From assembly GCA_963713865.1 (NCBI GenBank), contig OY970208.1, positions 1,664,001 to 1,728,000 on the forward strand: a stretch of DNA of 64,000 nt, read 5' to 3'. A program made the position numbers and the translations under genes. The stretch comes from an uncultured candidate division Zixibacteria bacterium (GTDB lineage Bacteria > Zixibacteria > MSB-5A5 > RBG-16-43-9). The stretch's first letter is position 1. Each line of letters starts with the position of its first letter. Below, piece after piece: positions 29,280-47,728 of the stretch. A model generated the notes under the pieces. It saw nothing but the letters and a program-made list of their open reading frames with translations, was not told the DNA's origin and ran no database searches.

Positions 29280-29474
29280 TTATTTTTTAGATTCCCAATA
29301 AATTATGATAACTGCCACATTACGATATTTGCCCGGTCTTACTGCGTAAATAAATTGAACTATAGATTTATCCTTATTAGAATCCAGCCACTTATTAAGT
29401 GCTTTATTAACTGTCAGAGAAAACATTTTATCTTCAACTGGCTCTAACTCCACCGTATCAAATCCCCTATCCAT
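29280..29474 (-). CDS. Small hypothetical protein
   Basis: 64-aa ORF co-oriented with neighbours; no motif recognised. Confidence 0.3.
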   Translation of the reverse strand: MDRGFDTVELEPVEDKMFSLTVNKALNKWLDSNKDKSIVQFIYAVRPGKYRNVAVIIIYWESKK

Positions 29475-29573
29475 AGATCTACTTTTAAAAAAGGTTTAAA
29501 GTTAACTGTTCCGTGAAAATTTTCTTTATAAAAAGTTTAGACTACATTTTAAAAAACCTCCTCACACTCTGGA

Positions 29574-29963: not shown

Positions 29964-29988
29964 CCTACTACCTACCACCTATTACCTA

Positions 29989-30888
29989 TCACCTACTACT
30001 TGCCACCCCCAAGGCAATCGACATAAACTTGGTCTCGTGTGAATCAGCCCTTGAAGTTAAAACCACTGGTACTTTTGTGCCTAAGACGACAGCGGCGCAT
30101 TTGGCTTTGGCGAATTCAACTAAAGTTTTGTATATGACATTCCCAGTTTCTATATCCGGACAGAGGAGGATATCTGCTTTTCCTGCAACAGGGCTTTTCA
30201 CCCCTTTTATTTTGGCTGACTCTTCGGAGATGACATTATCTAAGCCAAAAGGACCATCTACTATTGCTCCTTTGATCTGTCCCCTTTTTGCCATCATTGA
30301 CAGACAGGCGGCATCTACAGTTGCTGGCATCTTTTCTGGATTGACCTTTTCCGTTGCCGCAATACAGGCAACTTTGGGTTTTTCAATTCCTAAAGATATT
30401 GCTAAATCAACAGCATTCTGTATTATCTGAGCTTTTTCCATAAGGGTGGGGGCGATATTTATGGCCGCATCAGTTAGGATTAAAAGTCGAGGAAAATCCG
30501 GTATCTCGAAAACCGCTACATGGGTTAGAAGTTTTCCAATGGCTAACCCTTTTTCTTTATCTAAGATCCCCTTCATAAAAATACCGGTATCTAAAAGCCC
30601 TTTCATCATCAAATCTGCTTTTCCTTGATTAATTAATTGGGCACATAAAAGTGAAGCTTTCAATGAACCTTTTTCCTCAACTAATTCATACTCTGAGAGG
30701 TCTATCTTATTTTTATCAGCCAGTTCTTTTATCTTCTCCTCGGAACCAACTAAAATACATTGAATAACTTTTTCTCTGCGAGCCTGGTCTAAAGCTAAGA
30801 GTACTTCTTCATCCTCGGCCTTAGCCACAGCGATTATTTTAGGTCCGATTGATTTAGCTAAACTTAATATCTCCCTTAGTTCCTTCAC
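29989..30888 (-). CDS. ptb: Phosphate butyryltransferase
   Basis: MMKG, LTHVAV, TDAAINIAP, VDGPFGLD, VLTSRADS; GTG start. Confidence 0.92.
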   Translation of the reverse strand: MKELREILSLAKSIGPKIIAVAKAEDEEVLLALDQARREKVIQCILVGSEEKIKELADKNKIDLSEYELVEEKGSLKASLLCAQLINQGKADLMMKGLLDTGIFMKGILDKEKGLAIGKLLTHVAVFEIPDFPRLLILTDAAINIAPTLMEKAQIIQNAVDLAISLGIEKPKVACIAATEKVNPEKMPATVDAACLSMMAKRGQIKGAIVDGPFGLDNVISEESAKIKGVKSPVAGKADILLCPDIETGNVIYKTLVEFAKAKCAAVVLGTKVPVVLTSRADSHETKFMSIALGVASSR

Positions 30889-30898
30889 AAAAATTCCT

Positions 30899-30947
30899 TT
30901 GACAAAAAATCTCGGTATAATATATTGATTAAGAAGATATTTATCAA
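30899..30947. promoter_or_regulatory. Overlapping opposite-strand sigma70-like promoters
   Basis: + strand TTGACA-N16-TATATT and - strand TTGATA-N17-TATATT share the palindrome AATATATT. Confidence 0.4.
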
Positions 30948-31205
30948 CAGAAAAAGATGAAACGTAGTAGGGTTAACCAGATGATATAATATAATGTCGG
31001 GGACAAGTCCTGACGATACGAAAAATATTACCTCTCCTTTTCAAGAAAGGGCAGGGGAAAGGCTAAAAAATATCTTGCTAAAAATAATTTATATGCTATA
31101 CTTATAAATGGAGAAGTAAGTTAGATACATGAAATTATTCCGCCTGATCAGGGAATCTGACCGGTAGATAGATAGAGGAATAATATCAACGGGAAGGAGG
31201 TTTTT

Positions 31206-31586
31206 ATGTCCTTCTGTCCTTTCTGCGGAGAAGAAATAACTGAAGAGAAAACTTTTTGTCAGCGCTGTGGTTACTCGAACAGTTTAGCCCTTCCCTATCC
31301 TTCAACTAAGATTAGCTTTTCTAATATATTATTAGCTTCCGTGGGATTGATTTCAGGAATAGGCTCATGTATTTTTTCTTTGCTCCCATATTATAATTAT
31401 TTAGGATTTATTCTGGTCATATCCACGGTTGTCTTTTCGGGTATTTCTCTGGAGAAGCTAACTAAGAAATTTGATTCCGTTCCGATTAAAGTTCTTTCAG
31501 TAATTGCTCTGGTTTTTGCTGCGGCTGGTTATCTTCTTTTTATTTTCTATAACTCCCGTATGCCCGGTAGTGGTAGCCACGCATGA
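31206..31586 (+). CDS. Small zinc-ribbon membrane protein
   Basis: AAGGAGG RBS; FCPFCG...FCQRCG; three hydrophobic helices. Confidence 0.8.
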   Translation: MSFCPFCGEEITEEKTFCQRCGYSNSLALPYPSTKISFSNILLASVGLISGIGSCIFSLLPYYNYLGFILVISTVVFSGISLEKLTKKFDSVPIKVLSVIALVFAAAGYLLFIFYNSRMPGSGSHA

Positions 31587-31590
31587 TTTT

Positions 31591-31648
31591 GTAGCGTCGG
31601 GTTTTATGTCCGACGTGAAAAAACATCAGGGACAGGTCCTGACGCTAC
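31591..31648. repeat. REPIN-like element
   Basis: GTAGCGTCGGG..CCGACG and TCAGGGAC..GTCCTGACGCTAC; halves also at 1406-1430 and 30996-31020. Confidence 0.8.
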
Positions 31649-31673
31649 GAAATAAGGGAACGTCCTACAAGTT

Positions 31674-32741
31674 TTAGTACTCTTTTTCTTTCTCTTCTTC
31701 TGTCAATGCCCTTAAGGCTCCTAAGGTTAAAGCCTCCATCTCATCCTCACCTGGGAAAACCAGAACTTTGGAGAGGAAATCGACCCTCTGTTTAATCATA
31801 TTAATCAATCTTTCCGAATTGGCTATCCCTCCGGTGAGAACAATCGCATCTACTTTACCAGATAGAGTGGGTGCCATTGCCCCGATCTCTTTGGCGATCT
31901 GATAGACCATTGCCTCATAGATCAGTTTTGCTTTTTGATCTCCAGAGTCGATCATTTTTTCAATTTCTTCCACATTGTCTGTATCCAGATAAGCTAAAAG
32001 TCCACCTTTTTTGGTTATCTTATCATACATCTCCACATAGGTGTATTTTCCAGAGAAGCATAGCTTAACTAAACCCGTTACTGGAAGATTGCCAGTCCTC
32101 TGGGGTGAGAAAGGTCCACCATCATTAGCATTATTTACATCGATCATCTGCCCTTTTAAATGGGAACTAACGCTGATTCCTGAACCGAGATGCACGATGA
32201 TCAGATTAAGCTCCTCATATCTTTTTCCCAGTTCAAATGCAGATTTCCTTGCCACCATTTTGATATTCAAGGCGTGAGAGAGACTTTTTCTTTCCAACTC
32301 CGGCATACCAGAAATTCGTGAAATTGGAGGGAATTCATCTACTGAGACCGGATCAACAATGAAAGCAGGTATGTCAGTCTCTCTGATTAATCCATAAGCA
32401 ATCAGTGCTCCCAGATTTGAAACATGGTCTGCCTGGACATTGCCAGCTCTTATATCTGAGAGCATCTTCTGGTTAACTCGGTAGGTGCCACTGGATAAAG
32501 GTTTAAAAGCACCTCCTCTTCCTACCACTGCAGAAAGGTCCGTGATTTTCAGATTGTTCCTCAGCAAGAATTTCATTACTATATTCTTTCTGTAATCCAA
32601 CTGGTCTAAGGTCTTAGGATAGTCTTTAAGCTCATCTGCAGAATGCCTTAAAACCTCCACGATCAGAGGATTTTTATCCTCATACAGAGCTACCTTGGTA
32701 GAAGTTGCCCCGGGATTGATGCTTAAAATTTTATAGGTCAT
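31674..32741 (-). CDS. buk: Butyrate (branched-chain acyl) kinase
   Basis: INPGATSTK, VGRGG, HVSNLG, HALN, HLGSG, GPFSPQRTG, LTGG. Confidence 0.95.
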   Translation of the reverse strand: MTYKILSINPGATSTKVALYEDKNPLIVEVLRHSADELKDYPKTLDQLDYRKNIVMKFLLRNNLKITDLSAVVGRGGAFKPLSSGTYRVNQKMLSDIRAGNVQADHVSNLGALIAYGLIRETDIPAFIVDPVSVDEFPPISRISGMPELERKSLSHALNIKMVARKSAFELGKRYEELNLIIVHLGSGISVSSHLKGQMIDVNNANDGGPFSPQRTGNLPVTGLVKLCFSGKYTYVEMYDKITKKGGLLAYLDTDNVEEIEKMIDSGDQKAKLIYEAMVYQIAKEIGAMAPTLSGKVDAIVLTGGIANSERLINMIKQRVDFLSKVLVFPGEDEMEALTLGALRALTEEEKEKEY

Positions 32742-32897
32742 ATTTTTATTTTTGCAAGGCTGAAGCCTTGCCTACGATCATAGTCCCGCACAAATGCGGG
32801 ACCCTACAGCTCTTTGACCAATCATCAGGGAAAGCACAGGGGTCTGCCCCAACAATTTTTTATCCGTCATCCTTCATACGTCATTCGATATATTTTA

Positions 32898-33962
32898 TTA
32901 CGCATGTCTCTGTCTGAATTTCTTAACTTCGGCGATCCTGGCTTTGGCTAAGATATTAGCAGCTTTGTAGGTTGGTATTTTCGAGTCCTCAGAAATCTCT
33001 AAGATTCTTTTCATAATATCATAAATTCCAGTTGCCTGTTTTATTGCTTTTTCTCTGATATAACCTCCTAATTCATTAGCTACATTGATCATACCGCCTG
33101 CACCGATTACAAAATCTGGTGCATATAGTATTCCTTTTTTATGCAAGATCTCCCCATATTTTTCCTCCGCCAGTTGATTATTAGCTGGACCAGCGATGAT
33201 CTTCACTTTAAATTTCTCCATAGTTTCAGCATTTATCACTCCGCCTAAGGCACAGGGTGAGAAGACATCTGCTTTAACTTCAAAGATCTTTTCTGGCGAA
33301 ACGATCTCTGCATCTAACTCCTGCCTGGCTTTCTCGGTTTTCTCAGTTATAATATCCGCAACGATTAATCTGCATCCTGCCTCTTTCAATTTCTGAGCCA
33401 GATGATACCCAACATGACCCACCCCTTGAATCGCCACCGAGATACCTTCCAGAGATTTTCTATTAAAAACTTTCTCCACACAGGCTAAAAGTCCGTTGTA
33501 TAGACCGATAGCAGTGATGGGGCCCGGATCTCCGCTTCCTCCTAAAGCCCTGGATAGACCTACTACATATTTGGTCTCATAGCGGACTATCTCCATATCC
33601 TCAACTGTGGTTCCAACATCTTCGGCAGTGATATATCTTCCGTTAAGACCTTGCACAAATCTTCCAAATGCTCTTAAGAGTAATTCGTTTTTATTTTTTA
33701 GAGGGTCTCCAATTATCACCCCTTGACCCCCACCAAAGTTAATCCCAGCAGCAGAGGCTTTATAAGTCATAGCTTTAGAAAGAAGCAATACGTCTTTTAA
33801 TGCCTCCTCCTCAGATTTGTAAGGAAACATCCTTACTCCACCAATGGCCGGTCCTAAGGTGGTATCGTGGATAGCGATGATTCCTCGGAGTTGTGCTACT
33901 TTATCCGAGCAGAAGATTATCTGCTCATGTTGGTCTTCAGCTAAAGATTCAAAAATTTCCAT
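32898..33962 (-). CDS. Leucine dehydrogenase-like protein with catalytic Lys replaced by Gln
   Basis: AIHDTTLGPAIGGVR, MTYK, GGGQ (normally GGGK), TAEDVG, QGVGHVG, ANNQL. Confidence 0.88.
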   Translation of the reverse strand: MEIFESLAEDQHEQIIFCSDKVAQLRGIIAIHDTTLGPAIGGVRMFPYKSEEEALKDVLLLSKAMTYKASAAGINFGGGQGVIIGDPLKNKNELLLRAFGRFVQGLNGRYITAEDVGTTVEDMEIVRYETKYVVGLSRALGGSGDPGPITAIGLYNGLLACVEKVFNRKSLEGISVAIQGVGHVGYHLAQKLKEAGCRLIVADIITEKTEKARQELDAEIVSPEKIFEVKADVFSPCALGGVINAETMEKFKVKIIAGPANNQLAEEKYGEILHKKGILYAPDFVIGAGGMINVANELGGYIREKAIKQATGIYDIMKRILEISEDSKIPTYKAANILAKARIAEVKKFRQRHA

Positions 33963-34112: not shown

Positions 34113-34886
34113 CTAAACCCAGTTCGGTTTTCTTTTCTGTAAAAATGCCTCCATTCCTTCTTTTGCCTCTCCCGCTGCAAAACATTCTCCAAAGGCATCT
34201 ACTTCAAAGGAACTACCTGTGGCAAAATCTGTTTCCACTCCCCGGCCGATCACCCTTTTAGCCTGTCTGACTGCAGTTGGTCCTTTGGAAGCAATCTTTT
34301 TTGCCATCTCCATACAGACATCCATCAGGTTATCATGGGGGACCACTTGATTAACCAGTCCGATATTCAAAGCAGTTTGAGCATCGACCATATCTGCAGT
34401 TAAAATCAACTCTTTAGCTTTAGCAGCACCGACCATTCGAGCCAATCTTTGAGTTCCGGCAAAACCGGGAATTACTCCCAGGTTCACCTCCGGCTGTCCT
34501 AATTTAGCTTTATCTGAGGCTATCCGGATATCACAAGCCATAGCTAATTCACACCCTCCACCCAAAGCAAAACCATTGACCGCTGCAATGACCGGCCTAT
34601 CCTGAGATTCTATCAGGGAGAAAACTTTTTGTCCCATCTCAGAGAAATCTATTGCCTGCTGTCTGGTCATATCCTTCATCTCAGCAATATCCGCTCCAGC
34701 CACGAATGCCTTTCCCTCTCCAGTAATTATGATTACTTTGATCTTTTCATCTCTACTCCACTGATGGGCTATATCGTTAAGCTCATGAATAGTCTCAGTA
34801 TTTAAGGCATTTAACTGCATAGGTCGGTTGATTTTTATTATGCCAATACTGTCTTTAATCTCTGTCAGAAGATTCTTATATTCCAC
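34113..34886 (-). CDS. crt: Enoyl-CoA hydratase (crotonase)
   Basis: AFVAGADI, ALGGGCELAMACD, GQPEVNLG..PGFAGTQRL. Confidence 0.92.
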   Translation of the reverse strand: MEYKNLLTEIKDSIGIIKINRPMQLNALNTETIHELNDIAHQWSRDEKIKVIIITGEGKAFVAGADIAEMKDMTRQQAIDFSEMGQKVFSLIESQDRPVIAAVNGFALGGGCELAMACDIRIASDKAKLGQPEVNLGVIPGFAGTQRLARMVGAAKAKELILTADMVDAQTALNIGLVNQVVPHDNLMDVCMEMAKKIASKGPTAVRQAKRVIGRGVETDFATGSSFEVDAFGECFAAGEAKEGMEAFLQKRKPNWV

Positions 34887-34996
34887 ATCTCCTCCTTTCC
34901 TTTTAGCTATTAGCAGGTAGCTTGTAGCTATTAGCTTTAAAACTCTATGCTTTTGAACATATTCTTTAGACTTTAGCCTATAGCCTTTTGACTATT

Positions 34997-36130
34997 TTAT
35001 TTCATCAACTCTCTGAAGATAACCAATCTCTGAATCTCTGAAGTTCCCTCACCTATCTCGCAGAGCTTTACGTCACGCAGGTACCTTTCAACCGGGTAAT
35101 CTCTGGAATATCCATATCCTCCAAAGATTTGAATTGCCTGATAAGTGACAAACCTGCCGACTTCTGATGCGTAAAGTTTTGCCATAGCTGATTCTTTAAC
35201 GTATCTCTCTCCTCTGTCTTCTAAAAAAGCAGCATGGTAAATCAGATGTCGGGCAGCTTCAATCTGAGTTGCCATATCCGCTAATTTAAACTGGATGGCT
35301 TGAAATTCGATTAAGGGCTTTTCAAATTGAATCCTTTCCCTGGCGTATCTCAAGGCTTTATCAAAGGCTCCCTGGGCTATGCCTAATGCCATCGCACCTA
35401 TGCTTATCCTTCCGCCATCCAAGGTAATCAAAAACTGCTTGAATCCTTCTCCTTCTTTACCTAAAATATTCTCTTTAGGAATTTTTAAATCCTCAAAATG
35501 CAGGGTAGCGGTATCAGAACCTCGTAAACCCATTTTGGTTTCTTTTTTACCTACGGAGAATCCTTTCAGCCCTTTTTCCAGGATAAAAGAGCTGATCCCT
35601 TTGGTACCTTTGGTTTTGTCGGTTACTGCAGTAGTCACAAAAATTTCCGCAACTGAGGCATTGGTGATAAAACATTTAGAGCCGTTGATTACATAACTAT
35701 CACCATCTAAAGCCGCCGTGGTTTTAGTTCCTCCAGCATCTGAGCCAGCATCAGGTTCGGTTAAACCGAAGGCACCTAACTTTTCTCCCTTGGCTAAAGG
35801 TGGGATATATTTTTTCTTCTGTTCTTCATTACCAAAAAGATATATAGGGCAGATGGCTAAGGAATTGTGTGCAGCAACTGTTATTCCAGTTGAACCACAG
35901 ACGCGGGAGAGTTCCTCTACAGCGATGGCATATCTTAAGGTGTCTATGCCTGTGCCTCCATATTCCGGAGGAGCGACCATCCCTAAAAGACCGAGATTTG
36001 CTACCTTCCTTATATTCTCAAAAGGGAATTCTGCTTTCTCGTCTATTTCCTTAGCTTTAGGTTCAATCTCTTTTTCTGCAAACTCTCTTATCTTGTTTCT
36101 AAAGGCTAAATATTTTTTATCTAAATACAT
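34997..36130 (-). CDS. Acyl-CoA dehydrogenase
   Basis: FGLTEPDAGSD, LDGGRI, QIFGGYG, EIGEGTSE. Confidence 0.94.
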   Translation of the reverse strand: MYLDKKYLAFRNKIREFAEKEIEPKAKEIDEKAEFPFENIRKVANLGLLGMVAPPEYGGTGIDTLRYAIAVEELSRVCGSTGITVAAHNSLAICPIYLFGNEEQKKKYIPPLAKGEKLGAFGLTEPDAGSDAGGTKTTAALDGDSYVINGSKCFITNASVAEIFVTTAVTDKTKGTKGISSFILEKGLKGFSVGKKETKMGLRGSDTATLHFEDLKIPKENILGKEGEGFKQFLITLDGGRISIGAMALGIAQGAFDKALRYARERIQFEKPLIEFQAIQFKLADMATQIEAARHLIYHAAFLEDRGERYVKESAMAKLYASEVGRFVTYQAIQIFGGYGYSRDYPVERYLRDVKLCEIGEGTSEIQRLVIFRELMK

Positions 36131-36156
36131 TCTGCTCCCTTATCCCATGGATTTTT

Positions 36157-37299
36157 TTAGGATTTTAAAAGGTCTCTGGAGATGACCATTCTCTGAGCTT
36201 CAGAGGTTCCCTCATAGATCTCGGTTACCCTGGCATCCCGGAAATATCTTTCCACTGCATATTCTTTCATATATCCATACCCGCCGTGAATCTGAACCGC
36301 CTCGTTTACCACATAGTTGGCTATTTCAGAAGCAAAGAGTTTAGCCATTGAAGCCTCTATACTGCATCTTATTTTATTCTGTTTCAACCAGGCGGCACGA
36401 TAGACTAAAAGGCGAGCAGCTTCTATCTGGGTAGCCATATTAGCTAATTTGAATTGAATCGCCTGAAAGTTGCAGATCGGCTGACCGAATTGAACCCGCT
36501 CTTTCGAATATTTTAAAGCTTCAGCCAGGGCTGATTGGGCAATTCCTACCGATTGAGCCCCTACTCCGATCCTTCCAGAATCGAGTAATTCTAAGGCTAT
36601 ACGAAAACCTTTGTTTTCCTCTCCAATTAAGCTTACTTTAGGCACAAGGCAATCCTCAAAGGAGATCTCTCTGGTATCAGAGCCTCTGATCCCCATTTTC
36701 TTTTCTTTGGTACCGATATTAAATCCTTTTAAACCCTTATCAACTATCAGACAGGAGATGCCTTTGGATTTAGCCTCAGGATTGGTTAAGACAAAAAGAA
36801 CAAAGAGATCTGCAATCCCGCCGTTGGTAACAAAGGTTTTGGTACCATTAACTAAATAGTGGTCTCCTTTTAAAAGTGCAGTAGTCTTTAAACTTCCAGC
36901 ATCGGTTCCAGCCTGTGGTTCAGTTAAAGAATAAGCTCCGATAAATTCTCCTTTAGTTAATTTAGACAGATATTTTTTCTTCTGCTCCTCAGTTCCAAAT
37001 TTGTAAATGGCTTCGCAGACCAAGGAATTATGAACTGATAAGGAGATCATTAAAGCGGCACAGGCTTTGGAGAACTCCTCCATAGTCAGGATGTAGCTAA
37101 TGAAATCCAAGCCCGAGCCACCATACTCTTCGGGCATTAACATTCCCAAATAACCTAAATCGGCTAATTCTTTGTATAGTTCTCTGGGAAGCTCTTCCTT
37201 CTCATCGAACTCCTGAGCTTTAGGTGCTAATTTCTCAGAAGCAAATTCCCTGGCGGCTTCTTTTATCATCTTTTGGTCTTCATTAAATTCAAAGTCCAT
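36157..37299 (-). CDS. Acyl-CoA dehydrogenase
   Basis: SLTEPQAGTD, RVQFG, QIHGGYG, IYEGTSE. Confidence 0.94.
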   Translation of the reverse strand: MDFEFNEDQKMIKEAAREFASEKLAPKAQEFDEKEELPRELYKELADLGYLGMLMPEEYGGSGLDFISYILTMEEFSKACAALMISLSVHNSLVCEAIYKFGTEEQKKKYLSKLTKGEFIGAYSLTEPQAGTDAGSLKTTALLKGDHYLVNGTKTFVTNGGIADLFVLFVLTNPEAKSKGISCLIVDKGLKGFNIGTKEKKMGIRGSDTREISFEDCLVPKVSLIGEENKGFRIALELLDSGRIGVGAQSVGIAQSALAEALKYSKERVQFGQPICNFQAIQFKLANMATQIEAARLLVYRAAWLKQNKIRCSIEASMAKLFASEIANYVVNEAVQIHGGYGYMKEYAVERYFRDARVTEIYEGTSEAQRMVISRDLLKS

Positions 37300-37422: not shown

Positions 37423-38670
37423 TTACTCTGCCTTTTTGAAAATCATTGCAACCACGGTTTTGTCGTTCCCACCCATACTGATCATCAAGGCATAAGGTTT
37501 ATACGGGTTAAGTTTTACCTGATACTCTCCAGCTTTACCGGTCAGCTGATGAACACAATCTACTGCCTGCCTGACTCCTGTTCCACCAACGTAATGACCG
37601 AAACCGATCAAACCACCACCTAGGTTTGTGGGAAGTTCACTTTTTAGATTGGTTTTTCCTGCCTGGACGAAAGCTGAACCTTCTCCATATTTAGCAAAAC
37701 CGGCTGCCTCTAATGCCAAAATACCTCCAACTGTGAAACAGTCATGGACTTCTAAAATGCCAATATCTTTGGGACCAAGTCCAGCCATTTTATAGGCTTT
37801 CTCAACTGCTCTTTTGGTAGTGCTCATCACGGTCATATCTTCAGGGGCTTTGGTTAGATCTGCTACTGCCGTACCAAATCCTACTACTTCAATCGCATCC
37901 TTTTTCCCCACGTCAATTTTCTTCAAACCCTCTTCGGAAGCGAAAATCAAGGCAGAAGCCCCATCCGATACCTTGGAACAATCATAGATATTGAGATGGT
38001 CAACAAAAGCTTTTGGATTTGGAGGGGTCATTCCGGCTGCAAATAAGTCTTCTATACTATTATGATATTCCTGAGCTTTTGGGTTTTTCCGGGCGTTCTC
38101 TATGGCTTGTTTATACCACAGAGCCATACCTTTTCTCATATAATCGTATCCGAATTTGTCATAACAAACACCGGCTCTATCTGAGAATAGAGCCGGGAAA
38201 AAGTAGGCATGCCCGTTTTTCCTCTCGGTGAGATAATGCCCTGCACCAGCTAATATATCTGCACCGTAAATAGCTTTAACGGTGTTCTGCACCTCCACTC
38301 CAATGGTCAATACTACATCCGATACTTCTGATGCGATGCTCTTCAGGGAAGTAAGTAAAGCTAATCCACCGGAACCACAGGCACCTTCAACCCGGGTATG
38401 AGGTTTGTATTCCAGGGATGGGTGAATCGTGGGTATGAGTGCAGCTAAATTGCCTTGTTTGTTAAACCGTGCGGCCATGAAGTTGGAGATTATACCTTCA
38501 TCTATATTTTCCGGATTATTTATCTGAGCAATTGCTCCTCTGCCCGCTTCCTGAATATACTGCTCCAATCCCGGTCTGGGCTTTTTAGGATTGAATTCCT
38601 TTCTTCCCGAGCCAAAGGAAATGGTGTTATATCCGGCGGTTAGATATACTTTCTTTCTTAATTTAGGCAT
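37423..38670 (-). CDS. Thiolase, SCP2/HDCF type
   Basis: EGACGSGG, DCSKVSDGA, EVHDCF, GHYVGGTG. Confidence 0.88.
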   Translation of the reverse strand: MPKLRKKVYLTAGYNTISFGSGRKEFNPKKPRPGLEQYIQEAGRGAIAQINNPENIDEGIISNFMAARFNKQGNLAALIPTIHPSLEYKPHTRVEGACGSGGLALLTSLKSIASEVSDVVLTIGVEVQNTVKAIYGADILAGAGHYLTERKNGHAYFFPALFSDRAGVCYDKFGYDYMRKGMALWYKQAIENARKNPKAQEYHNSIEDLFAAGMTPPNPKAFVDHLNIYDCSKVSDGASALIFASEEGLKKIDVGKKDAIEVVGFGTAVADLTKAPEDMTVMSTTKRAVEKAYKMAGLGPKDIGILEVHDCFTVGGILALEAAGFAKYGEGSAFVQAGKTNLKSELPTNLGGGLIGFGHYVGGTGVRQAVDCVHQLTGKAGEYQVKLNPYKPYALMISMGGNDKTVVAMIFKKAE

Positions 38671-38682
38671 CTTTTTCCTCCA

Positions 38683-40023
38683 TTAAATATAATCGTTTAT
38701 TGGTCCATACAAATGATAGAATCCATTTAATAATACGTTATTCACATCCTCAGATGTTTTAGCTACACCTGTTTTCACCAGCTTTTCGCCAATTTCTTTG
38801 GAGTTTTTAAGGTAAGCTAATGCAAGTTTTGCACCGAGGGTATTGGAGGTTTTCAGATTCTTGAAAAATACTGAAAGCTTATCGCCCTTTTTAGGGTCCA
38901 TAAGCAGATTTTTCCAGGGTGAGAAGCCGGAGGGATATTCGCCTAACTTTTTATCTATATCCCCGCTCCAGCCTTTAGGATTGAAAAGCTTATATTCTCC
39001 CTTGTCTATGTCATAGACACCAACCGGTCTGTTCCTGTCATATTTCAGGAAGCCATCTTTCTGAGAACCGTCGCTTCTCTGTCCACCCAGGACTTTTTTA
39101 TCGTACATTTTTTTCAAAAGTTCGTCCTTTAAATCCTCGCTTTCAATATAGTGATCAATTGTCTCGGAGATACTCTGGAAAACATCCACCCCCACATAAT
39201 CGATCAACTGGAAGATTCCCATAGGTCTGATCAACAAATCTTGACTGATTTTATTCATTATATAAAGAGCACCGGGCAGGGTATAGTCTTTTGCTAATTT
39301 CTTGGCTTCCCGTAGAGCATATAAGCCATCTCTTAAGAAATGCCCGTTCCCGATAAACCCGGCAATGTCGTTGGAGGGAACGATCTTCTTGTTCAGCCTT
39401 TTTGCCAGCTCAAGGGAGAAATCTTTTAATTCCTGAATGGTCGTATCGGCGGAGATAAGCTCTGCCAATCTCTGCACTGCTGGCGGATTGTAAAAATGGA
39501 ATCCGATTAGCCTTCCTCCAAGGTTGGATTCTTTATTTAAGATAGTTATGGGGATAGATGAGGTGTTGGTAAGGTAGAGGGTATCTTTGCTACAGAAGTT
39601 GTCAATCTTTTTCAATAGATTTACTTTTAAATCTTTATTTTCCAATACCGCCTCGAAGATCACTTTAGAATCTTTTATTACACTTAAATCTGTTTCTGGA
39701 CGTAATACCGAAAGAGCGTCTTCAATGTACTGGTTAATGCAGTCCTGATTCTCTATTAAATCCTCACGGCCTTTATACATCTGTCTTAACATCACACAGG
39801 CTTTTTCTCCAGCTTTAACTAACTGCGATTTTAAATATTGCAATAAACCTGCCAGATGGTCGGGATGAATATCGATCAGGTACAAGCGATAATCTTTATC
39901 CTTGTTCTCTGGTAAATTTTTCAGCCTTGCCATCTCCTGAGCTAAAAGCAGAGCTATCCCGCTTCCCATCTTCCCAGCCGCCCCGATTACCGCCACATTT
40001 TGCATCCTCTCGTCAAAATTCAT
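38683..40023 (-). CDS. 3-hydroxyacyl-CoA dehydrogenase family protein
   Basis: GAAGKMGSGIA, EAVLE, NTSSIP, HFYNP, GFIGN, PMGIFQLIDYVG. Confidence 0.88.
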   Translation of the reverse strand: MNFDERMQNVAVIGAAGKMGSGIALLLAQEMARLKNLPENKDKDYRLYLIDIHPDHLAGLLQYLKSQLVKAGEKACVMLRQMYKGREDLIENQDCINQYIEDALSVLRPETDLSVIKDSKVIFEAVLENKDLKVNLLKKIDNFCSKDTLYLTNTSSIPITILNKESNLGGRLIGFHFYNPPAVQRLAELISADTTIQELKDFSLELAKRLNKKIVPSNDIAGFIGNGHFLRDGLYALREAKKLAKDYTLPGALYIMNKISQDLLIRPMGIFQLIDYVGVDVFQSISETIDHYIESEDLKDELLKKMYDKKVLGGQRSDGSQKDGFLKYDRNRPVGVYDIDKGEYKLFNPKGWSGDIDKKLGEYPSGFSPWKNLLMDPKKGDKLSVFFKNLKTSNTLGAKLALAYLKNSKEIGEKLVKTGVAKTSEDVNNVLLNGFYHLYGPINDYI

Positions 40024-40260: not shown

Positions 40261-40767
40261 TTATTTATCCTGTTCCAACTCCATAATAGGCTCTTCGGTA
40301 TCGACCAACTGGTTTTCTTTGAAATTCACCTTTTTTACTATTCCATCCAAAGCTGATTTTATCTCATGCTCCATCTTCATTGCTTCTACGATTGCCAGGC
40401 TCTGTTTCTTTTTCACCTTTTCACCTTCGGAAACTAAAATTTTTAGTATCCGTCCGGGCATTGGAGCACAGACTGACTGTTTTCCTTCAGCTAAACCTGA
40501 TTCCTCTTCTTTTCTTTTAGCTCTGGTGGTGTCTTTTTCGTGGAGTATGAATTGTTCGCCCTGGACAAAGATATATCTTTTATTCTCAGCTTCTGCTAAA
40601 TAGACTGTCTGAATTTTACCATCAATTTCCAGGGACAAGCAGTTAGGGGAGATGACCTGACAATCAAACTCTTTTTTATTGTTCCCGAAATCTACAAAGT
40701 ATTTATCACCCTTTTTCTCAAGGTTGACTTTGTAGATTTTATCCTCTAAAACGAATTCAAATTCCAT
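40261..40767 (-). CDS. Biotin carboxyl carrier subunit (3-methylcrotonyl-CoA carboxylase)
   Basis: APMPG, EAMKMEH; ATG 40767 directly follows the carboxylase stop. Confidence 0.92.
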   Translation of the reverse strand: MEFEFVLEDKIYKVNLEKKGDKYFVDFGNNKKEFDCQVISPNCLSLEIDGKIQTVYLAEAENKRYIFVQGEQFILHEKDTTRAKRKEEESGLAEGKQSVCAPMPGRILKILVSEGEKVKKKQSLAIVEAMKMEHEIKSALDGIVKKVNFKENQLVDTEEPIMELEQDK

Positions 40768-40769
40768 AT

Positions 40770-42266
40770 CTAAACACCGATCTCCCATTTGCCCAGGGAA
40801 AGCCAGGGATCATACCCTGTGGCTTTAATCATCTTCCCCTTGGTAGAAGTTTTATCTGTTGATTGAATAACTCCGGCAATTAAAGCGATCTCTTTGAATT
40901 TCTCATTCTCTCTTTTCTCTTTCCATTCACCCATATTCTTGGGAATAAAATCGGTCTGGGTATTACCGGCAGTGAATTCTGGATGGGATAATAAATCTTT
41001 AAGATAGTTTATCTGGGTTTTAATGCCCAAGATGGCATAATCGGAAAGAGCCTGAATGGATCTTTTTCTGGCAGACTCTCTATTCTCGGCCCAGCAGATA
41101 AGTTTAGCCAGAATCGGGTCATAGTGCATAGTTACTTCGATTCCGGAGTATAGTCCTGAGTCATTCCTGATTCCGGGTCCGGAAGGCTCTTTAACATATA
41201 ATATTTTACCAAAGGAGGGGAGGAAATCATTTTCCGGGTCTTCGGCGTAGATCCTGCATTCAATCGCGTGTCCTCTTTGTGAAAGCTCCTCCTGCTTGAA
41301 AGGAAGTTTTTCACCACTTGCAATTTTTATCTGGGTTTTAACTAAATCCACACCAGTTACCAACTCGGTTATGGGATGCTCCACCTGAATGCGGGCATTG
41401 ACTTCCAGGAAATAGTATTTCCCATTCTCATCCAAGAGGAACTCGACTGTGCCTGCGTTGTTATAATTAGCGGTTTGAATAACTTTCACTGCAGTTTTTC
41501 CCATCTCAGCTCGGAGCTCAGGAGTTAAAGCAGTAGAGGGAGCTTCCTCTATGATCTTCTGATGTCTTCTCTGGATGGAACACTCCCTTTCAAAAAGATG
41601 GACTGCATTTCCATAATTGTCGGCTAATACCTGAAACTCAATGTGTCTTGGTCTCTCAATACATTTCTCCAGATAAACCGATTCATCTCCAAAAGCAGAT
41701 TTTGCTTCTCTCATTCCAGCTTCTATTGAGGATTTCAAATCTTCTTTGGAGTGGATGATTCTCATCCCTTTTCCTCCACCACCAGCAGAGGCTTTGAGCA
41801 TCACCGGATAGCCGATTCTTTCTGCCTGCTCTTCAAACTCTTTCAGGTTTCCACCTTTCATCTTCATACCGGGGATTATGGGGATTTTTGCCTGGGTCAT
41901 AGTCTTACGGGATTCAATTTTATCTCCAACCAATCTTAAAGCCTCTGAATTAGGTCCGATGAAAATTATTTTCTCGTCCTCACATCTTTTAGAAAAAAGA
42001 TGATTTTCAGCTAAGAAACCGTAACCCGGATGAATTGCTTCTACTTTAGATTTTTGGGCGATATCAATGATTTTGTCAATATTCAGGTAACTTTCTAACG
42101 GGGGAGCAGGACCTAATAGATGGGCTTCATCTGTCATCTGAACGTGAAGCGCTTTTCTATCCACCTCAGAGTATACCGCTACGGTTTCTATCCCCATCTC
42201 CTTGCAAGCCCGGATAATCCGGACTGCGATCTCACCCCGATTGGCAATTAGAATATTTTTGAACAT
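40770..42266 (-). CDS. Biotin carboxylase subunit (LiuD-like)
   Basis: ANRGEIA, HPGYGFLAEN, ERECSIQRRHQK, RIQVEHP; lies beside liuBC-like genes. Confidence 0.93.
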   Translation of the reverse strand: MFKNILIANRGEIAVRIIRACKEMGIETVAVYSEVDRKALHVQMTDEAHLLGPAPPLESYLNIDKIIDIAQKSKVEAIHPGYGFLAENHLFSKRCEDEKIIFIGPNSEALRLVGDKIESRKTMTQAKIPIIPGMKMKGGNLKEFEEQAERIGYPVMLKASAGGGGKGMRIIHSKEDLKSSIEAGMREAKSAFGDESVYLEKCIERPRHIEFQVLADNYGNAVHLFERECSIQRRHQKIIEEAPSTALTPELRAEMGKTAVKVIQTANYNNAGTVEFLLDENGKYYFLEVNARIQVEHPITELVTGVDLVKTQIKIASGEKLPFKQEELSQRGHAIECRIYAEDPENDFLPSFGKILYVKEPSGPGIRNDSGLYSGIEVTMHYDPILAKLICWAENRESARKRSIQALSDYAILGIKTQINYLKDLLSHPEFTAGNTQTDFIPKNMGEWKEKRENEKFKEIALIAGVIQSTDKTSTKGKMIKATGYDPWLSLGKWEIGV

Positions 42267-42280
42267 AGTATATGTTTTTC

Positions 42281-42359
42281 GTAGCGCGACCCTTTCAGGG
42301 TCGCTAAGTGAGGCTTAAGCCTCACACTGCATTCGTCCGACACTAAGGTCGGACGTTAC
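42281..42359. repeat. REP-like hairpin cluster
   Basis: GTAGCGCGACCC-TTTCA-GGGTCGC, GTGAGGCTTAAGCCTCAC, CGTCCGAC..GTCGGACGTTAC. Confidence 0.8.
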
Positions 42360-42382
42360 GTTTTTTTAACCCTTGAACTTTT

Positions 42383-43174
42383 TTATTCTTGACTCCACTT
42401 AGGCTTTCTTTTTTCCAGAAATGCGTTCATCCCTTCCTGTCCTTCTTCGCTTATTCTCATCTTGGCAATGACTTCAGCAGTGTATCTTTTGAATTCTTCT
42501 GGCTTCATCCCAGGAACATTATGCAACAAATCTTTGCACATAGCTGAAGCTTTGGGACCTGAGGAAAGGAGCTGTTTTATCCTTTCGTTTACGGCTTCAT
42601 CTAATTTATCTTCTGGAACCACCTGGTTTGCCATACCGGATTGTAAAGCTTTTTGAGCATCTATTCTTTCGCCGGTTAAAAATAACTCCCTGGCTACTCT
42701 TTCACCAACTCTTCGCAGAACATAGGGAGAGATGCAGGCGGGGACTAAACCTAATTTTACCTCAGATAAGCTGAACTTAGCCTTTTCTGAGGCTATGACT
42801 ATGTCACATACTGCCACCAAACCAGCTCCTCCTCCGATGGCTGCACCATTGACCCGGGCAATAGTTGGCTGAGGGAGGGTATACATCAAATAGAAAAGTT
42901 CAGCTAACTGCAGAGATTCTTTCAGATTTTCTTCATAAGAAAAATTTATTACCCTTTTCATCCAGTTCAAATCCGCACCTGCACAGAAAGATTGACCATT
43001 CCCGGTGAGAACCGCGATTCTAATTTTTTCGTCTGCTGAAATTATTTTAAAAATTTCAGTAAGCTCGAAAATCATAATGTCGTTAAAGGCATTATGCACT
43101 TCCGGACGATTCAGAAAAATACGGGCAATTTGATTTTCGATTTTAAAAGTGATGGTTTGATATTCCGAAGGCAT
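42383..43174 (-). CDS. liuC: Methylglutaconyl-CoA hydratase (LiuC-like)
   Basis: LNRPEVHNAF, FCAGADLNWM, GGGAGLVAVCD, SEVKLGLVPACISPY. Confidence 0.85.
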   Translation of the reverse strand: MPSEYQTITFKIENQIARIFLNRPEVHNAFNDIMIFELTEIFKIISADEKIRIAVLTGNGQSFCAGADLNWMKRVINFSYEENLKESLQLAELFYLMYTLPQPTIARVNGAAIGGGAGLVAVCDIVIASEKAKFSLSEVKLGLVPACISPYVLRRVGERVARELFLTGERIDAQKALQSGMANQVVPEDKLDEAVNERIKQLLSSGPKASAMCKDLLHNVPGMKPEEFKRYTAEVIAKMRISEEGQEGMNAFLEKRKPKWSQE

Positions 43175-43187
43175 CTTTATTATCCTT

Positions 43188-43255
43188 TGTCATTCTGAGC
43201 CCGTAGGGCGAAGAATCTGTAGATTCTTCGGTCGCCATGCTCCCTCAGAATGACA
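43188..43255. repeat. TGTCATTCTGAG...CTCAGAATGACA palindromic element, copy 2
   Basis: First 31 nt identical to 15901-15931. Confidence 0.85.
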
Positions 43256-43267
43256 GCTCTAATTATT

Positions 43268-44875
43268 TTACATCCTGAAAATCCCATATTTAGTCTCTGG
43301 GATAGGTTCATTCAGAGCCATAGAGATTCCTAAAGCTAATGCAGTTCTGGTCTCGACTGGGTCGACTATACCATCATCCCATAACCTGGCAGTGCTGTAA
43401 TAAGGGCTGGATTCCTCTTCGTATTTTTTCAAAATCGGCTCTTTGAATTTCTCTTGCTCCTCCTCGGTCATCTTAATCCCTTTAGCTTCCAAGGTTCTCA
43501 TCCTTACGGTTAATAAAACATTTGCCGCCTGATCCCCTCCCATCACGCAGATTTTGGCATTGGGCCACATCCATAAAAGACGCGGGTTATAAGCCCTTCC
43601 GCACATCCCGTAATTTCCAGCACCATAGGAACCGCCAACAATTACCGTGAATTTTGGCACATCTGCATTGGCAACTGCATGCACCATCTTGGCTCCATCT
43701 TTGGCAATTCCGCCGTGCTCATATTGTTTGCCGACAATAAACCCGGTGATATTCTGCAAGAATATCAAAGGGATTTTTCTCATAGTGCAAAGGGTGATAA
43801 AATGTGCAGCTTTAACTGAGCTTTCGGAGAATAGAACACCATTATTAGCTAAAATTCCCACGGGATAACCCATTATCTTAGCAAAGCCTGTGACAATCGT
43901 AGGTCCATAAAGCTCCTTGAACTCCTGGAACTTACTCCCGTCCACTATGCGGGCGATAATCTCCCTCTGGTCATAAGGTTTTCTTATGTCACGAGGTATA
44001 ACCCCGTATATTTCTTTTGGGTCATAATAAGGTTCTTCAGGTTCCTTTGTATCCAGCTCAAATTTTTTGGGGTGATCTAAATTCTCGATTATATTTCTGG
44101 TAATCTCTATGGCATGTTCATCATTTAAAGCATAGTGGTCTGCTACACCTGAAATCCGGCAGTGAACATCAGCCCCGCCTAATTCCTCATCGGTGACTTC
44201 CTCTCCGGTTGCGGCTTTGACCAGAGGAGGACCTCCGATGAAAATAGTTCCCTGTTTTTTTACTATTACCGCCTCATCGCTCATCGCCGGGACATAAGCT
44301 CCTCCTGCAGTGCAGGAACCTAAGACCACTGCTATCTGGGGAATTCCCAAGGCAGAAAGTCTTGCCTGGTTATAAAAGATTTTGCCAAAATGGTTTTTGT
44401 CCGGGAAGGTTCCGGATTGATATGGTAAGAAAATCCCGCCAGAATCGACTAAGTAAACGCAGGGGAGATGGTTCTGCTCTGCTATTTCCTGAGCGCGAAC
44501 ATGTTTTTTTATGGTAGAGGGGAAATAGGTTCCGCCCTTGACTGTGGCATCATTTGCCACAATCAGAACCTCTCTTCCGTGAACCACACCCACTCCGGTT
44601 ATTATTCCTGAGCTTGGAGGTTCTTCCTCATACATTTTATAACCAGCTAAATGGGAGAACTCCAAAAAAGGAGTATTTTTATCGAAGAGAAGATTTAATC
44701 TTTCCCTGGGTAGAAGTTTTCCTCTGGCTTTATGTCTTGCCTTATCTTTGGCAGAGCCACCCTCCTTAATCTTGGCTAAAACCTCCTTATACTCATCCAC
44801 CACCCTCTGCATGGCGTCAAGATTGGCTTTGAATTCTAAGGAACTGGTATCGATTTTTGATTCTATACGGAACAT
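43268..44875 (-). CDS. liuB: 3-methylcrotonyl-CoA carboxylase carboxyltransferase subunit
   Basis: [54 protein letters not shown]-terminal GIFRM. Confidence 0.93.
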
Positions 44876-44902
44876 TTTTTACCTTTACCTTAGTTATATT
44901 TC

Positions 44903-45021
44903 GTAGTGCGACCCTTTTCCTATTAACGGATCCGAAGCAAGCCCCCGTAGGGTATGATATGGTCGTATTGCCCTACGGGCGCTACTTTTTAAATACGTCC
45001 GACAGAAACGTCAGACGTTAC
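44903..45021. repeat. REP-like cluster with nested palindromes
   Basis: GTAGTGCGACCCTTTTCC..ACGGATCCG..GCCCTACGGGCGCTAC; CGTCCGAC..GTCAGACGTTAC. Confidence 0.75.
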
Positions 45022-45056
45022 GTCTCCAAACTCCAAACGAACAAGCTTCAAACTTT

Positions 45057-45446
45057 TTACACCGGCACGCATTTATACCCGTAACAGATAATCCCGGCTT
45101 CGCCTTCCTGGAAGATTTTCCGGAACTCGATTCTCACCGGCATCCCGATCTCCAATTTGTCAAAATCGCAGTCTGCTACCTGGGATAAAATCTTAACTCC
45201 CTCATTTAGTTCCACTATTCCCATGGCATAAGGAGTCTGATCTGTGAATTGACTGGGCGCTACCCGGATTACGGTATAGGTAAGAAGCTTGCCTTCTTTT
45301 TGTAAATTAATCTTCTCGAATTCTCTGGATTTACAACCATCGCAGATTAATCTTGGCGGAAAGAATATCTTACCGCATTTTTTGCATTTCCCAGCCTCTA
45401 ATCTATATCTCTGAGGGATTTCCCTCCAGTATTTTGGCGATGACAT
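45057..45446 (-). CDS. DUF35 Zn-ribbon/OB-fold scaffold protein
   Basis: CKKC..FFPPR..CDGC plus OB fold; start overlaps the thiolase stop. Confidence 0.93.
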   Translation of the reverse strand: MSSPKYWREIPQRYRLEAGKCKKCGKIFFPPRLICDGCKSREFEKINLQKEGKLLTYTVIRVAPSQFTDQTPYAMGIVELNEGVKILSQVADCDFDKLEIGMPVRIEFRKIFQEGEAGIICYGYKCVPV

Positions 45447-46603
45447 TATACCACCTCCATTATATGAACAATGCTGCTTCCCCCGCTTCCTCCCATATTC
45501 TGGGTCAAGCCGATTTTGGCATTTTTGACCTGTCTTTCACCAGCATCACCCCTGAGCTGTTTTACTATCTCGATTGCCTGGGCAACTCCGGTTGCTCCAA
45601 CTGGATGACCTTTCGATTTTAGTCCGCCAGAAGTATTAACCGGTATCTTTCCACCGAGAGTGGTTAACCCGTGCTCGGTTTCGGGACCGCCTTTTCCTTT
45701 TTCCACAAAACCTAACGCCTCGATCACGCAGATCTCCGCAATAGTGAAACAGTCGTGAACCTCTGCTAAATCTATCTCTTCTGGTCTTTTGCCTGACATA
45801 TCATAAGCGATTTTTGCGGCTCGCTCAGTTGATTTAATCTCAGTTAAATCATTCCGGCTGTGAAGAGCAATAGTATCTGTGGCATGGCCTATACCGATTA
45901 TTTTGACAACTGGTTTTTTAGAAATCTTCTTAGCTAAATCCAGGGGTGCTAAAATTACTGCAGCGGCTCCATCGGTTATAGGAGAGCAGTCTAAAATTCT
46001 TAACGGATCTGCTACCATGACCGAGTCCAGAACCTCCTCTAAAGTTATCTTCTGAGGATATTGAGACAGGGGGTTCATTGAGCCGTGATAATGGTTTTTC
46101 ACCGCGACCTGAGCAAGCTGTTTTCTTGTGGTTCCATATTTCTGCATATGGGCACGCGCCATCAAAGCATAAAGTCCAGGAAAAGTTATTCCCTGATAGA
46201 CCTCATATTCCTGGTCTGCGGCAGTGGAGAGGGCAAAAGTAGCGCCAGCTACTGAAACGTCGGTCATCTTCTCCACACCTCCCACTAAAACTATATCGTT
46301 TAATCCTGAGGCAACCTCGATAAATCCTGTTTTCAAAGCTAATCCTCCGGATGCGCAGGCAGATTCAACCCTGGTAGCTGGAATTTGTCCCATTCCCAAA
46401 TAATCAGATAAAAGAGAGGAGAGGTGCTCCTGATCCACAAAAAGACCCGAGGACATACATCCAACATACATAGAGTCGATATGGTCAACACCCGCATCTT
46501 CAATTGCCAGTAAAGCCGCCTCAGTGAATATGTCCCTTAAAGATTTTTCCCATAACTCCCCCCATTTATTCATTCCCACACCGATTATTGCGACGTCTCT
46601 CAT
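45446..46603 (-). CDS. Archaeal-type acetoacetyl-CoA thiolase
   Basis: [45 protein letters not shown]. Confidence 0.92.
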
Positions 46604-46611
46604 TTTCTCTC

Positions 46612-47658
46612 CTATTCCCCTTTCCTGATTTTTCCGCGGTATTTAGCGTAAGTCCCGTATTCCACATAGCTTTTATTATTGTTCAGCATATCTCTGGTCT
46701 TAATCGCTTTGTCCCTGACCTGGTTTATCCTCTCAGTCACCCTCCAGACAAAAGCATCACTTCCTGCACCTGAGCCATAAGAGACCATAAAAATTAAATC
46801 ATCTGGTTTGGCTTCATCTAAAATCGCAGTTAATCCCATAGGGGAGGAACCTGAATAAGTATTTCCCAGTTTCGGACACAAAAGACCTGTTTCCATCTGT
46901 TCCTTTTCAAACCCTAAGAGCTTACCTACCTTCACAGGAAATTTTCCATTGGGCTGGTGAAAAACCGCATACTGGAAATCCTTAGGCTTCATTTTTAATT
47001 TCTCTAACATCCCTTTTCCCGCGCCTAAGATATGTTTGAAATAAGCCGGGTCACCGGTAAATCTGGAGGCATGTCTGGGATAGAATTGATACTCTCTTCT
47101 CCAGAAATCCGGGGTATCGGTCATATAGGAATAGGTATCAACTGCCTCAGCGATAATATTGTCCTTCCCCATAATGAAAGCTGCAGCTCCGGCCGCAGCG
47201 GTATATTCTAATGCATCCCCGGGTGCTCCCTGAGAAGTATCTGCTCCAACTGCCAAGCCATATTCGATTGAGCCGGATCCGACCAAACCCAGGCAGACGA
47301 ACATCGCTTCAGTCCCAGCTTTGCAGGCAAATTCAAAATCTGCGCAGTGAACGTCCGGAGTGGCTCCGATGGCTTCTCCTACCACTGTTCCGCTTGGTTT
47401 TACTGCATAAGGATGTGATTCTGAGCCTACATAAACCGCCCCAATTTTTTTAGGGTCAATCTGTGCCCGTTTCAAAGCACTAAAAGCGGCTTCGACTGAC
47501 ATAGTGATAGTGTCCTGATCTGGAGCGGGGACAGATTTTTCTTCCACACTAAGCCCCTTTTTATAGGCTTGTGCATCAGCACCCCAGACTTTGGCGATCT
47601 CTTCCACCTTTATCCTGTGTCTGGGGATATATGCCCCGTATCCTGTGATTCCAACCAT
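46612..47658 (-). CDS. Archaeal-type hydroxymethylglutaryl-CoA synthase
   Basis: 348 aa; [51 protein letters not shown]. Confidence 0.94.
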
Positions 47659-47698: not shown

Positions 47699-47728
47699 AT
47701 TATACTAAATAAACATGGAAAAAGTCAA
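47699..47728 (-). promoter_or_regulatory. Putative sigma70 promoter of the HMG-CoA synthase-led operon
   Basis: TTGACT-N18-TATAAT on the - strand, 40 nt upstream of the ATG. Confidence 0.55.

Follow-up and report, generated by a model that had tools for sequence, protein, structure and literature searches.

A block of seven genes in a 64,000-nucleotide stretch of a Zixibacteria genome (hereafter the window) starts with an archaeal-type HMG-CoA synthase (HMGS; HMG stands for 3-hydroxy-3-methylglutaryl), an acetoacetyl-CoA thiolase and a DUF35 scaffold protein, which we call the trio, and continues with a methylcrotonyl-CoA carboxylase (MCC) and a crotonase. We propose, with a probability of roughly 0.55, that the seven genes constitute a single operon with which a sediment-type Zixibacterium that degrades amino acids carries out the lower half of leucine/isovalerate breakdown, and that the trio would there run in reverse and turn HMG-CoA and 2 CoA into 3 acetyl-CoA by a lyase-free, thioester-conserving route. 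Reverse operation was the first of three options raised by an earlier sequence-only reading of the window. It gives the best fit to the lack of a lyase of three families, the synteny, the catabolic context and a net reaction near equilibrium, and it is from these that we infer the direction of flow.

The seven-gene block and its catalytic motifs

The seven open reading frames named in the sequence-only reading, encoding HMGS, thiolase, DUF35, MCC beta, crotonase, biotin carboxylase (BC) and biotin carboxyl carrier protein (BCCP), are all present on the minus strand from 47658 to 40261 (Table 1), and the catalytic motifs described for HMGS and the thiolase are intact. HMGS retains E80, C112, H234 and N266 and matched the solved chain 6ESQ_I with 499 bits, while its score against the bacterial-type model TIGR01835 was only 112 bits (cut-off 360). 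The thiolase retains C83, H283-D-C-F and H333 and matched 6ESQ_A (365 bits) and 7YVY_A (370 bits); the DUF35 protein matched 6ESQ_E (128 bits) and carries two CxxC motifs, at residues 21-24 and 35-38. The carboxyltransferase (CT) scored, among solved chains, 747.7 bits against Pseudomonas aeruginosa MCC beta (3U9R_B) and 745 against human MCCB, compared with 469.7 for geranyl-CoA carboxylase (GCC) and at most 286 for propionyl-CoA carboxylase (PCC), and is by these matches of the MCC type. BC keeps GGGGKG at position 162 and E288/N290/R292 (E-x-N-x-R), and BCCP carries AMKM with K137. BC and BCCP are encoded by two genes that overlap by 19 nt, so that the MCC alpha subunit is split. The best NCBIfam models of the crotonase stayed below their cut-offs (PRK07468, 282.6 bits vs 350; PRK05674, a gamma-carboxygeranoyl-CoA hydratase, 267.7 vs 426) and its matches among solved chains were unnamed crotonases only; judged by gene position, it is probably a 3-methylglutaconyl-CoA hydratase, LiuC/AtuE-like.

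The genes of HMGS and thiolase are separated by 8 nt, and the DUF35 start and the thiolase stop share 1 nt. The single promoter predicted ahead of HMGS stands insofar as the best-scoring promoter-like site of the region lies there (Table 1); such sites are not enriched, the region holding 32 of them vs 34.5 +/- 5.9 in shuffles.

Search of the host genome for HMG-CoA sinks

The host genome is a single contig of 2,723,046 bases with a marker completeness of 94.16%. Its closest relatives among public records are Candidatus Zixiibacteriota metagenome-assembled genomes, and the best relative of its HMGS (locus L003) is 93% identical. The HMGL-like family PF00682, which covers LiuE as well as LeuA, had no match in the 2.72 Mb contig and was matched in 14 of 14 control genomes. 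The HMG-CoA lyase model NF004283 matched neither the host genome nor any of the 27 genomes of its own order, and the host genome gave no match to the CitE/HpcH-type lyases (PF03328), AtuA (PF07287), family-I CoA-transferases (PF01144) or HMG-CoA reductase (PF00368). The absences of lyase, CoA-transferase and reductase that had been noted for the window therefore extend to the whole contig. The host genome is without a recognised enzyme to dispose of the HMG-CoA that carboxylase and hydratase would make.

Gene order across related loci

Synteny was analyzed in the best 80 of 572 public contig stretches that encode a relative of the HMGS. All 60 loci reaching at least 3.6 kb beyond the HMGS start carry the thiolase and DUF35 genes, the MCC CT follows the trio in 40 of the 45 reaching at least 7.5 kb, and CT, crotonase (ECH) and BC are all present in 33 of the 40 reaching at least 9.5 kb. 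The loci are labelled as Zixibacteria, Aminicenantes/Acidobacteriota, Ignavibacteria, Calditrichaceae, Gemmatimonadota, Eisenbacteria and others, and the recurrence of the trio next to liu genes that the sequence-only reading had made a test of its proposal was thus found in several phyla. In the closest relative, L003, the starts of DUF35 and CT lie 2.7 kb apart (12213-14890) vs ~0.6 kb here, owing to an insertion that is not AtuA.

Census of candidate sinks in the phylum

We surveyed 251 genomes of the phylum with a completeness of at least 80%, the host genome (G000) included. Any HMGS match stronger than E 1e-28 was counted (HMGS+, 209 genomes, of which 201 exceed the curated cut-off); MCC CT was scored at E <= 1e-120 (CT+, 219/251) and lyase as NF004283 at E <= 1e-40 (41/251). 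AtuA occurs in 63 of the 251 genomes. At least one candidate HMG-CoA sink, that is trio, AtuA or lyase, is held by 216 of the 219 CT+ genomes: HMGS only in 127, the host genome among them, HMGS and AtuA in 37, HMGS and lyase in 21, all three in 7, AtuA only in 18, AtuA and lyase in 1, and lyase only in 5. The three CT+ genomes without a sink are G023, in which the contig ends just past thiolase and DUF35, both still visible, and G168 and G175, which are fragmented assemblies. A supposed class of 21 genomes with MCC and without any sink was dropped, as 18 of them carry AtuA, one ends in a contig break and two are fragmented assemblies that stay unexplained.

HMG-CoA reductase was matched in 30 of the 251 genomes, 29 of them among the 209 HMGS+ genomes and none among the 27 of the host's own order, leaving 180 HMGS+ genomes without a reductase match. 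The reductase matches lie mostly within open frames of ~770-800 aa (e.g. G017:C41:18993-20108), which suggests that the Zixibacteria reductases are fusions, possibly of thiolase and reductase, presumably as in MvaE.

AtuA in the position before the carboxyltransferase

In three genomes (G001, G065, G033) that have MCC and apparently lack both trio and lyase, the gene directly before CT encodes a 623-aa AtuA (PF07287, 503 bits), and downstream of AtuA-CT lie a classical thiolase, a 3-hydroxyacyl-CoA dehydrogenase and two acyl-CoA dehydrogenases (ACADs). A combined order, HMGS-thiolase-DUF35-AtuA-CT-ECH-BC-BCCP, was found in L096, L097 and L098. What is new here is that AtuA shares the slot of the trio before CT, alone or with the trio. 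Classical (type II) thiolases also lie near AtuA-bearing operons in L092 (3777-4997) and L097 (14897-16000), and a nearby type II thiolase fits the need for acetoacetyl-CoA cleavage when the thiolase of the trio is absent.

In the mechanism of HMGS, the free carboxymethyl arm of HMG-CoA derives from the acetyl-enzyme. It follows that a reversed HMGS and AtuA would cut the same bond, both giving acetoacetyl-CoA; from this bond the reversed HMGS would release acetyl-CoA and AtuA free acetate. In terpene and naphthalene degradation, AtuA is the presumed remover of acetate from 3-hydroxy-3-isohexenylglutaryl-CoA, leaving a 3-oxoacyl-CoA, according to excerpts of PMC4847356 and PMC13689101. The occupation of the slot before CT by AtuA thus marks the slot as an HMG-CoA-cleaving position. 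Where both are kept, trio and AtuA may represent two routes, one of high yield and near equilibrium, the other irreversible.

Proposed route and its energetics

In the proposed route, leucine would be converted to isovaleryl-CoA by the neighbouring aminotransferase or dehydrogenase together with one of five 2-oxoacid:ferredoxin oxidoreductases (OFORs), and an ACAD with the electron-transfer flavoprotein EtfAB would oxidise isovaleryl-CoA to 3-methylcrotonyl-CoA. The biotin enzyme composed of CT, BC and BCCP would carboxylate the latter at the cost of one ATP, and the crotonase would hydrate the carboxylated product to (S)-HMG-CoA. In place of a lyase, the DUF35-scaffolded HMGS/thiolase would then take HMG-CoA opposite to the archaeal direction: HMGS would take off the free carboxymethyl group as acetyl-enzyme and hand it to CoA, and the acetoacetyl-CoA left on the shared CoA site would swing to the thiolase and be cleaved, in sum HMG-CoA + 2 CoA -> 3 acetyl-CoA + H2O. 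That the ATP-grasp subunit is kept with its active-site motifs fits carboxylation and a flow towards HMG-CoA.

Since all carbon would stay in thioesters, the route would yield one extra acetyl-CoA, worth about one ATP, per leucine compared with lyase plus CoA-transferase or with AtuA-type cleavage. Counted as substrate-level phosphorylation, net per isovaleryl-CoA, the reverse trio would give +2 ATP, and lyase plus CoA-transferase, AtuA-type cleavage and stopping at isovalerate would give +1 each. For an anaerobe, the lyase route would thus bring no gain in ATP over stopping at isovalerate, which leaves open why anaerobes oxidise isovalerate; a reversible, channelled HMGS/thiolase would, if true, explain this oxidation.

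The condensation by acetoacetyl-CoA thiolase is given as +25.2 kJ/mol in an excerpt of PMC10562921. With HMGS assumed at -20 to -30 kJ/mol, the coupled standard free energy of the net reverse reaction was computed as -5 to +5 kJ/mol, that is near equilibrium, a range that rests on the assumed HMGS value. At 0.1 mM acetyl-CoA, 1 mM CoA and 0.1 mM HMG-CoA the net reverse reaction comes to -17 to -7 kJ/mol; a high CoA/acetyl-CoA ratio renders it exergonic and a high acetyl-CoA/CoA ratio endergonic. The reverse HMGS step alone would need free acetoacetyl-CoA below ~1e-7 to 1e-9 M, and this requirement is the mirror image of the problem that channelling solves in archaea.

More broadly, we suggest tentatively, at a little short of even odds, that in many phyla uncultured sediment bacteria complete the breakdown of leucine/isovalerate with a reversed HMGS/thiolase/DUF35, gaining one more ATP per leucine than by any lyase route, and that AtuA is the acetate-releasing, irreversible counterpart, the two being kept singly or together as a choice between yield and driving force.

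Points against the reverse direction and rival explanations

Several points weigh against reverse operation. HMGS is generally regarded as irreversible in practice, and the standard free energy used for it above is our assumption and not a literature value. Trio and AtuA coexist in 44 of the 219 CT+ genomes, some within one operon, and are therefore not simple alternatives. The anticorrelation of the trio with liuE proposed in the sequence-only reading turned out to be weak, with lyase in 28 of 192 CT+HMGS+ vs 6 of 27 CT+HMGS- genomes, and strict exclusion of one by the other was rejected on account of the same 28 genomes. The trio occurs without CT in 5 of the 45 long loci (L019, L036, L039, L046, L050), and among the 32 CT- genomes of the census 17 have HMGS, 4 lyase only and 11 none of these. 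The census counts come from related, non-independent genomes and are given with no test statistic. A last point, the use that a forward pathway would have, belongs to the main rival.

This rival, which we consider unlikely, is the biosynthetic direction: the trio would make HMG-CoA from three acetyl-CoA, the crotonase would dehydrate it, the biotin enzyme would decarboxylate the product, possibly yielding ATP, and ACAD/Etf would reduce 3-methylcrotonyl-CoA to isovaleryl-CoA. As a counterpart of the myxobacterial route that depends on biotin, it would serve iso-fatty acids, or leucine via reductive carboxylation and a Glu/Leu/Phe/Val (ELFV) dehydrogenase or branched-chain aminotransferase (BCAT). 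Forward is the archaeal direction of the trio, acyl-CoA carboxylases are reversible in vitro, the net HMG-CoA reaction lies near equilibrium either way, and an aminotransferase, ELFV dehydrogenases and OFORs are present. The host genome also lacks IlvD (PF00920) and, with PF00682 unmatched, a LeuA-like protein, so that a forward pathway to isovaleryl-CoA would have a use. Leucine-specific auxotrophy as an argument for biosynthesis is weakened by the fact that IlvD is missing too, even though an isolated ketol-acid reductoisomerase (IlvC) exists (G000:C1:624877-625848; NF004017, 421 bits); valine and isoleucine would still be without a route. A LeuCD-like pair at C1:2184-2187 kb, next to isocitrate dehydrogenase, possibly serves as an aconitase. 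Against the biosynthetic direction, a dedicated decarboxylase would not need an ATP-grasp subunit, yet this subunit is kept with intact motifs, and PF01144, the family expected of the myxobacterial decarboxylase AibA/B, which we take to have the CoA-transferase fold, had no match. The slot is moreover common to AtuA, a presumed catabolic lyase, and the neighbours (PCC, mutase, phosphate butyryltransferase (PTB), butyrate kinase) are catabolic. The second option of the sequence-only reading, synthesis of isovaleryl-CoA, accordingly retains the missing IlvD and LeuA-like protein in its favour and has the AtuA slot and the ATP-dependent BC, whose active site is intact, against it.

Rather improbable as well is that an unrecognised enzyme splits HMG-CoA, so that thiolase and DUF35 would only serve the thiolysis of acetoacetyl-CoA, and HMGS would be kept as their partner or would recapture acetoacetyl-CoA. 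Thiolase/DUF35 pairs without HMGS act on other substrates, according to the part of bioRxiv 10.1101/2024.07.05.601840 available, and a BbsAB model match was obtained here; the 44 genomes with trio and AtuA together would also agree with such an enzyme. HMGS, however, keeps all four catalytic residues and accompanies the pair in 60 of 60 loci, and 127 CT+ genomes, the host included, are without the three searched lyase families.

Mevalonate was the third option of the sequence-only reading, with leucine carbon channelled into it. In the host genome the best match to the mevalonate kinase model TIGR00549 was 84.9 bits, under the cut-off of 163, and IspH of the 2-C-methylerythritol 4-phosphate (MEP) route was found. 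Because the reductase is absent, the kinase stays below its cut-off and IspH is present, the trio cannot feed mevalonate here, and this option is ruled out for the host genome. That the trio represents ordinary mevalonate genes, or an HMG-CoA supply for another product, placed beside liu genes by chance is very improbable: archaea enter the mevalonate pathway by way of the trio, according to PMC12960953, and 29 of 209 HMGS+ Zixibacteria have a reductase, but neither the host nor its order has one and the trio-CT order is conserved across phyla.

Gene neighbourhood

The operon is set in a degradative branched-chain amino-acid island with BCAT, ELFV dehydrogenase, three ACADs, butyrate kinase, PTB, a PCC-like set, MeaB and mutases (Table 1). 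Together with the ATP-dependent carboxylase, this setting points to a flow from isovaleryl-CoA to HMG-CoA. The minus-strand set at 28209-33962 scored 488 bits against TIGR02707 (cut-off 289), 405 against NF004472 (399) and 448 against TIGR01122 (246), the aminotransferase being of the IlvE type. The two minus-strand ACADs are candidates for the oxidation of isovaleryl-CoA and 2-methylbutyryl-CoA. The plus-strand genes at 8548-20710 look like a module from propionyl-CoA to succinyl-CoA, and one of the two mutases might be of the isobutyryl-CoA type. Elsewhere the host genome encodes one EtfAB pair and five OFOR alpha subunits.

In L004 and L005, too, the genes of the 3-hydroxyacyl-CoA dehydrogenase-like and the second thiolase-like protein adjoin the operon, with 72-86% identity; in the former protein, of 446 aa, the NAD domain covers 211 residues for a 180-position model. 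The sets of ELFV dehydrogenase, butyrate kinase and PTB are duplicated, at 21359-23638 (+) and 27274-33962 (-). The second butyrate kinase frame (22733-23638, 301 aa) matches model positions 62-350 only, so that either the listed TTG lies downstream of its real start or the gene is truncated. A 134-aa member of the '23S rRNA intervening sequence protein' family (PF05635) is encoded at 29574-29978 (-), between the PTB and aminotransferase genes.

Table 1. Features of the operon and its surroundings, in positions of the window
Feature	Position	Strand	Match or remark
Promoter-like site TTGACT-18-TATAAT	47699..47728	-	11 of 12, best of the region; ~40 nt ahead of HMGS start
Archaeal-type HMG-CoA synthase, 348 aa	46612..47658	-	TIGR00748 554.7 bits (cut-off 353.35); NF003274 559.1 (cut-off 244)
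Archaeal-type (SCP2-like) acetoacetyl-CoA thiolase, 385 aa	45446..46603	-	NF004720 550.6 bits (cut-off 420)
DUF35 scaffold protein, 129 aa, Zn ribbon and OB fold	45057..45446	-	PF01796 (OB_ChsH2_C) and PF12172 (zf-ChsH2)
MCC beta, carboxyltransferase, 535 aa	43268..44875	-	PF01039 515 bits
Crotonase, 263 aa	42383..43174	-	ECH_1 220 bits
Biotin carboxylase subunit, 498 aa	40770..42266	-	Three BC domains; NF006367 640 bits (cut-off 597)
Biotin carboxyl carrier protein, 175 aa	40261..40788	-	Biotin_lipoyl 66 bits and weak BT-domain match
3-Hydroxyacyl-CoA dehydrogenase-like protein (446 aa), then second SCP2-type thiolase-like protein (415 aa)	37423..40023	-	Beside the operon also in L004 and L005 (72-86% identity)
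Two ACADs (380 and 377 aa) and crotonase (257 aa)	34113..37299	-	Best model AcrC-like, below cut-off
ELFV amino-acid dehydrogenase, butyrate kinase, phosphate butyryltransferase, PF05635 protein, branched-chain aminotransferase	28209..33962	-	
MeaB, two methylmalonyl-CoA-mutase-like large subunits (9372-11039, 19112-20710), ACAD, metallo-beta-lactamase-fold protein	8548-20710	+	
Second carboxyltransferase and biotin carboxylase	14291-15841, 15991-17550	+	PCC-like set

Comparison with known systems

To our knowledge, textbooks treat HMG-CoA synthase as one-way and HMG-CoA lyase as the sole end of leucine catabolism. A literature search that left subscription journals mostly outside and did not cover supplements returned no description of a trio-MCC operon or of reverse HMGS in leucine catabolism. 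Added here are a single-contig genome that was searched for every recognised sink and yielded none, a four-way census, the slot shared by AtuA and trio, and the weak anticorrelation with liuE. If true, the reverse route would alter the interpretation of leucine turnover in Zixibacteria, Aminicenantes and Ignavibacteria, sediment phyla that are abundant and degrade protein; automated annotation of these would list the pathway as incomplete or take the trio for mevalonate genes. The AtuA slot, in turn, gives a direct handle on the long-unclear function of AtuA.

The closest counterpart of the trio is the thiolase/HMGS/DUF35 complex of Methanothermococcus thermolithotrophicus, reportedly described by Vogeli et al. 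in 2018 (PDB 6ESQ, 6ET9). All three subunits match it (499, 365 and 128 bits), E-C-H-N, HDxF and the Zn ribbon are kept, and the genes are adjacent; here, however, the host is bacterial, uses the MEP route and has no HMG-CoA reductase, the genes lead an MCC operon, the proposed direction is reversed, and the complex is a putative one. The repurposed bacterial PhlABC/Muc complexes, which are acylases, are listed as having lost the E-C-H-N tetrad and HDxF in the available part of PMC12960953 (2026), unlike the trio here, which keeps both. For archaea, channelling of leucine to mevalonate is described in an excerpt of PMC12979851.

The anaerobic isovalerate cluster of Desulfococcus multivorans is lyase-dependent, as far as the available text of PMC5109826 goes. 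With this cluster and Pseudomonas liuABCDE the present operon shares MCC beta, BC/BCCP and a hydratase leading to HMG-CoA, with ACADs nearby; it differs in that no LiuE/HmgL is found genome-wide, MCC alpha is split, and the trio stands where the lyase is expected. AtuA systems resemble it in that AtuA fills the slot before CT in other Zixibacteria and would be expected to split a 3-hydroxy-3-alkylglutaryl-CoA at the same C3-C4 bond, but AtuA, by its presumed activity, would release free acetate and is not found in the host genome.

The myxobacterial alternative pathway to isovaleryl-CoA consists of MvaS, LiuC, AibA/B and AibC. It likewise links acetyl-CoA and isovaleryl-CoA via HMG-CoA and 3-methylglutaconyl-CoA, there through a bacterial MvaS and a decarboxylase without biotin, as opposed to an archaeal-type HMGS and no PF01144 match here. 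A precedent of another kind is the reversed citrate synthase of the reversed oxidative tricarboxylic acid (roTCA) cycle in Desulfurella and Thermosulfidibacter, an enzyme of a different family and pathway for which we know of no channelling partner. It too is a Claisen-type synthase with thioester hydrolysis that was long held irreversible and is driven backwards by mass action, and HMGS would, if the reverse route is true, be the second 'irreversible' synthase to be driven backwards beside it.

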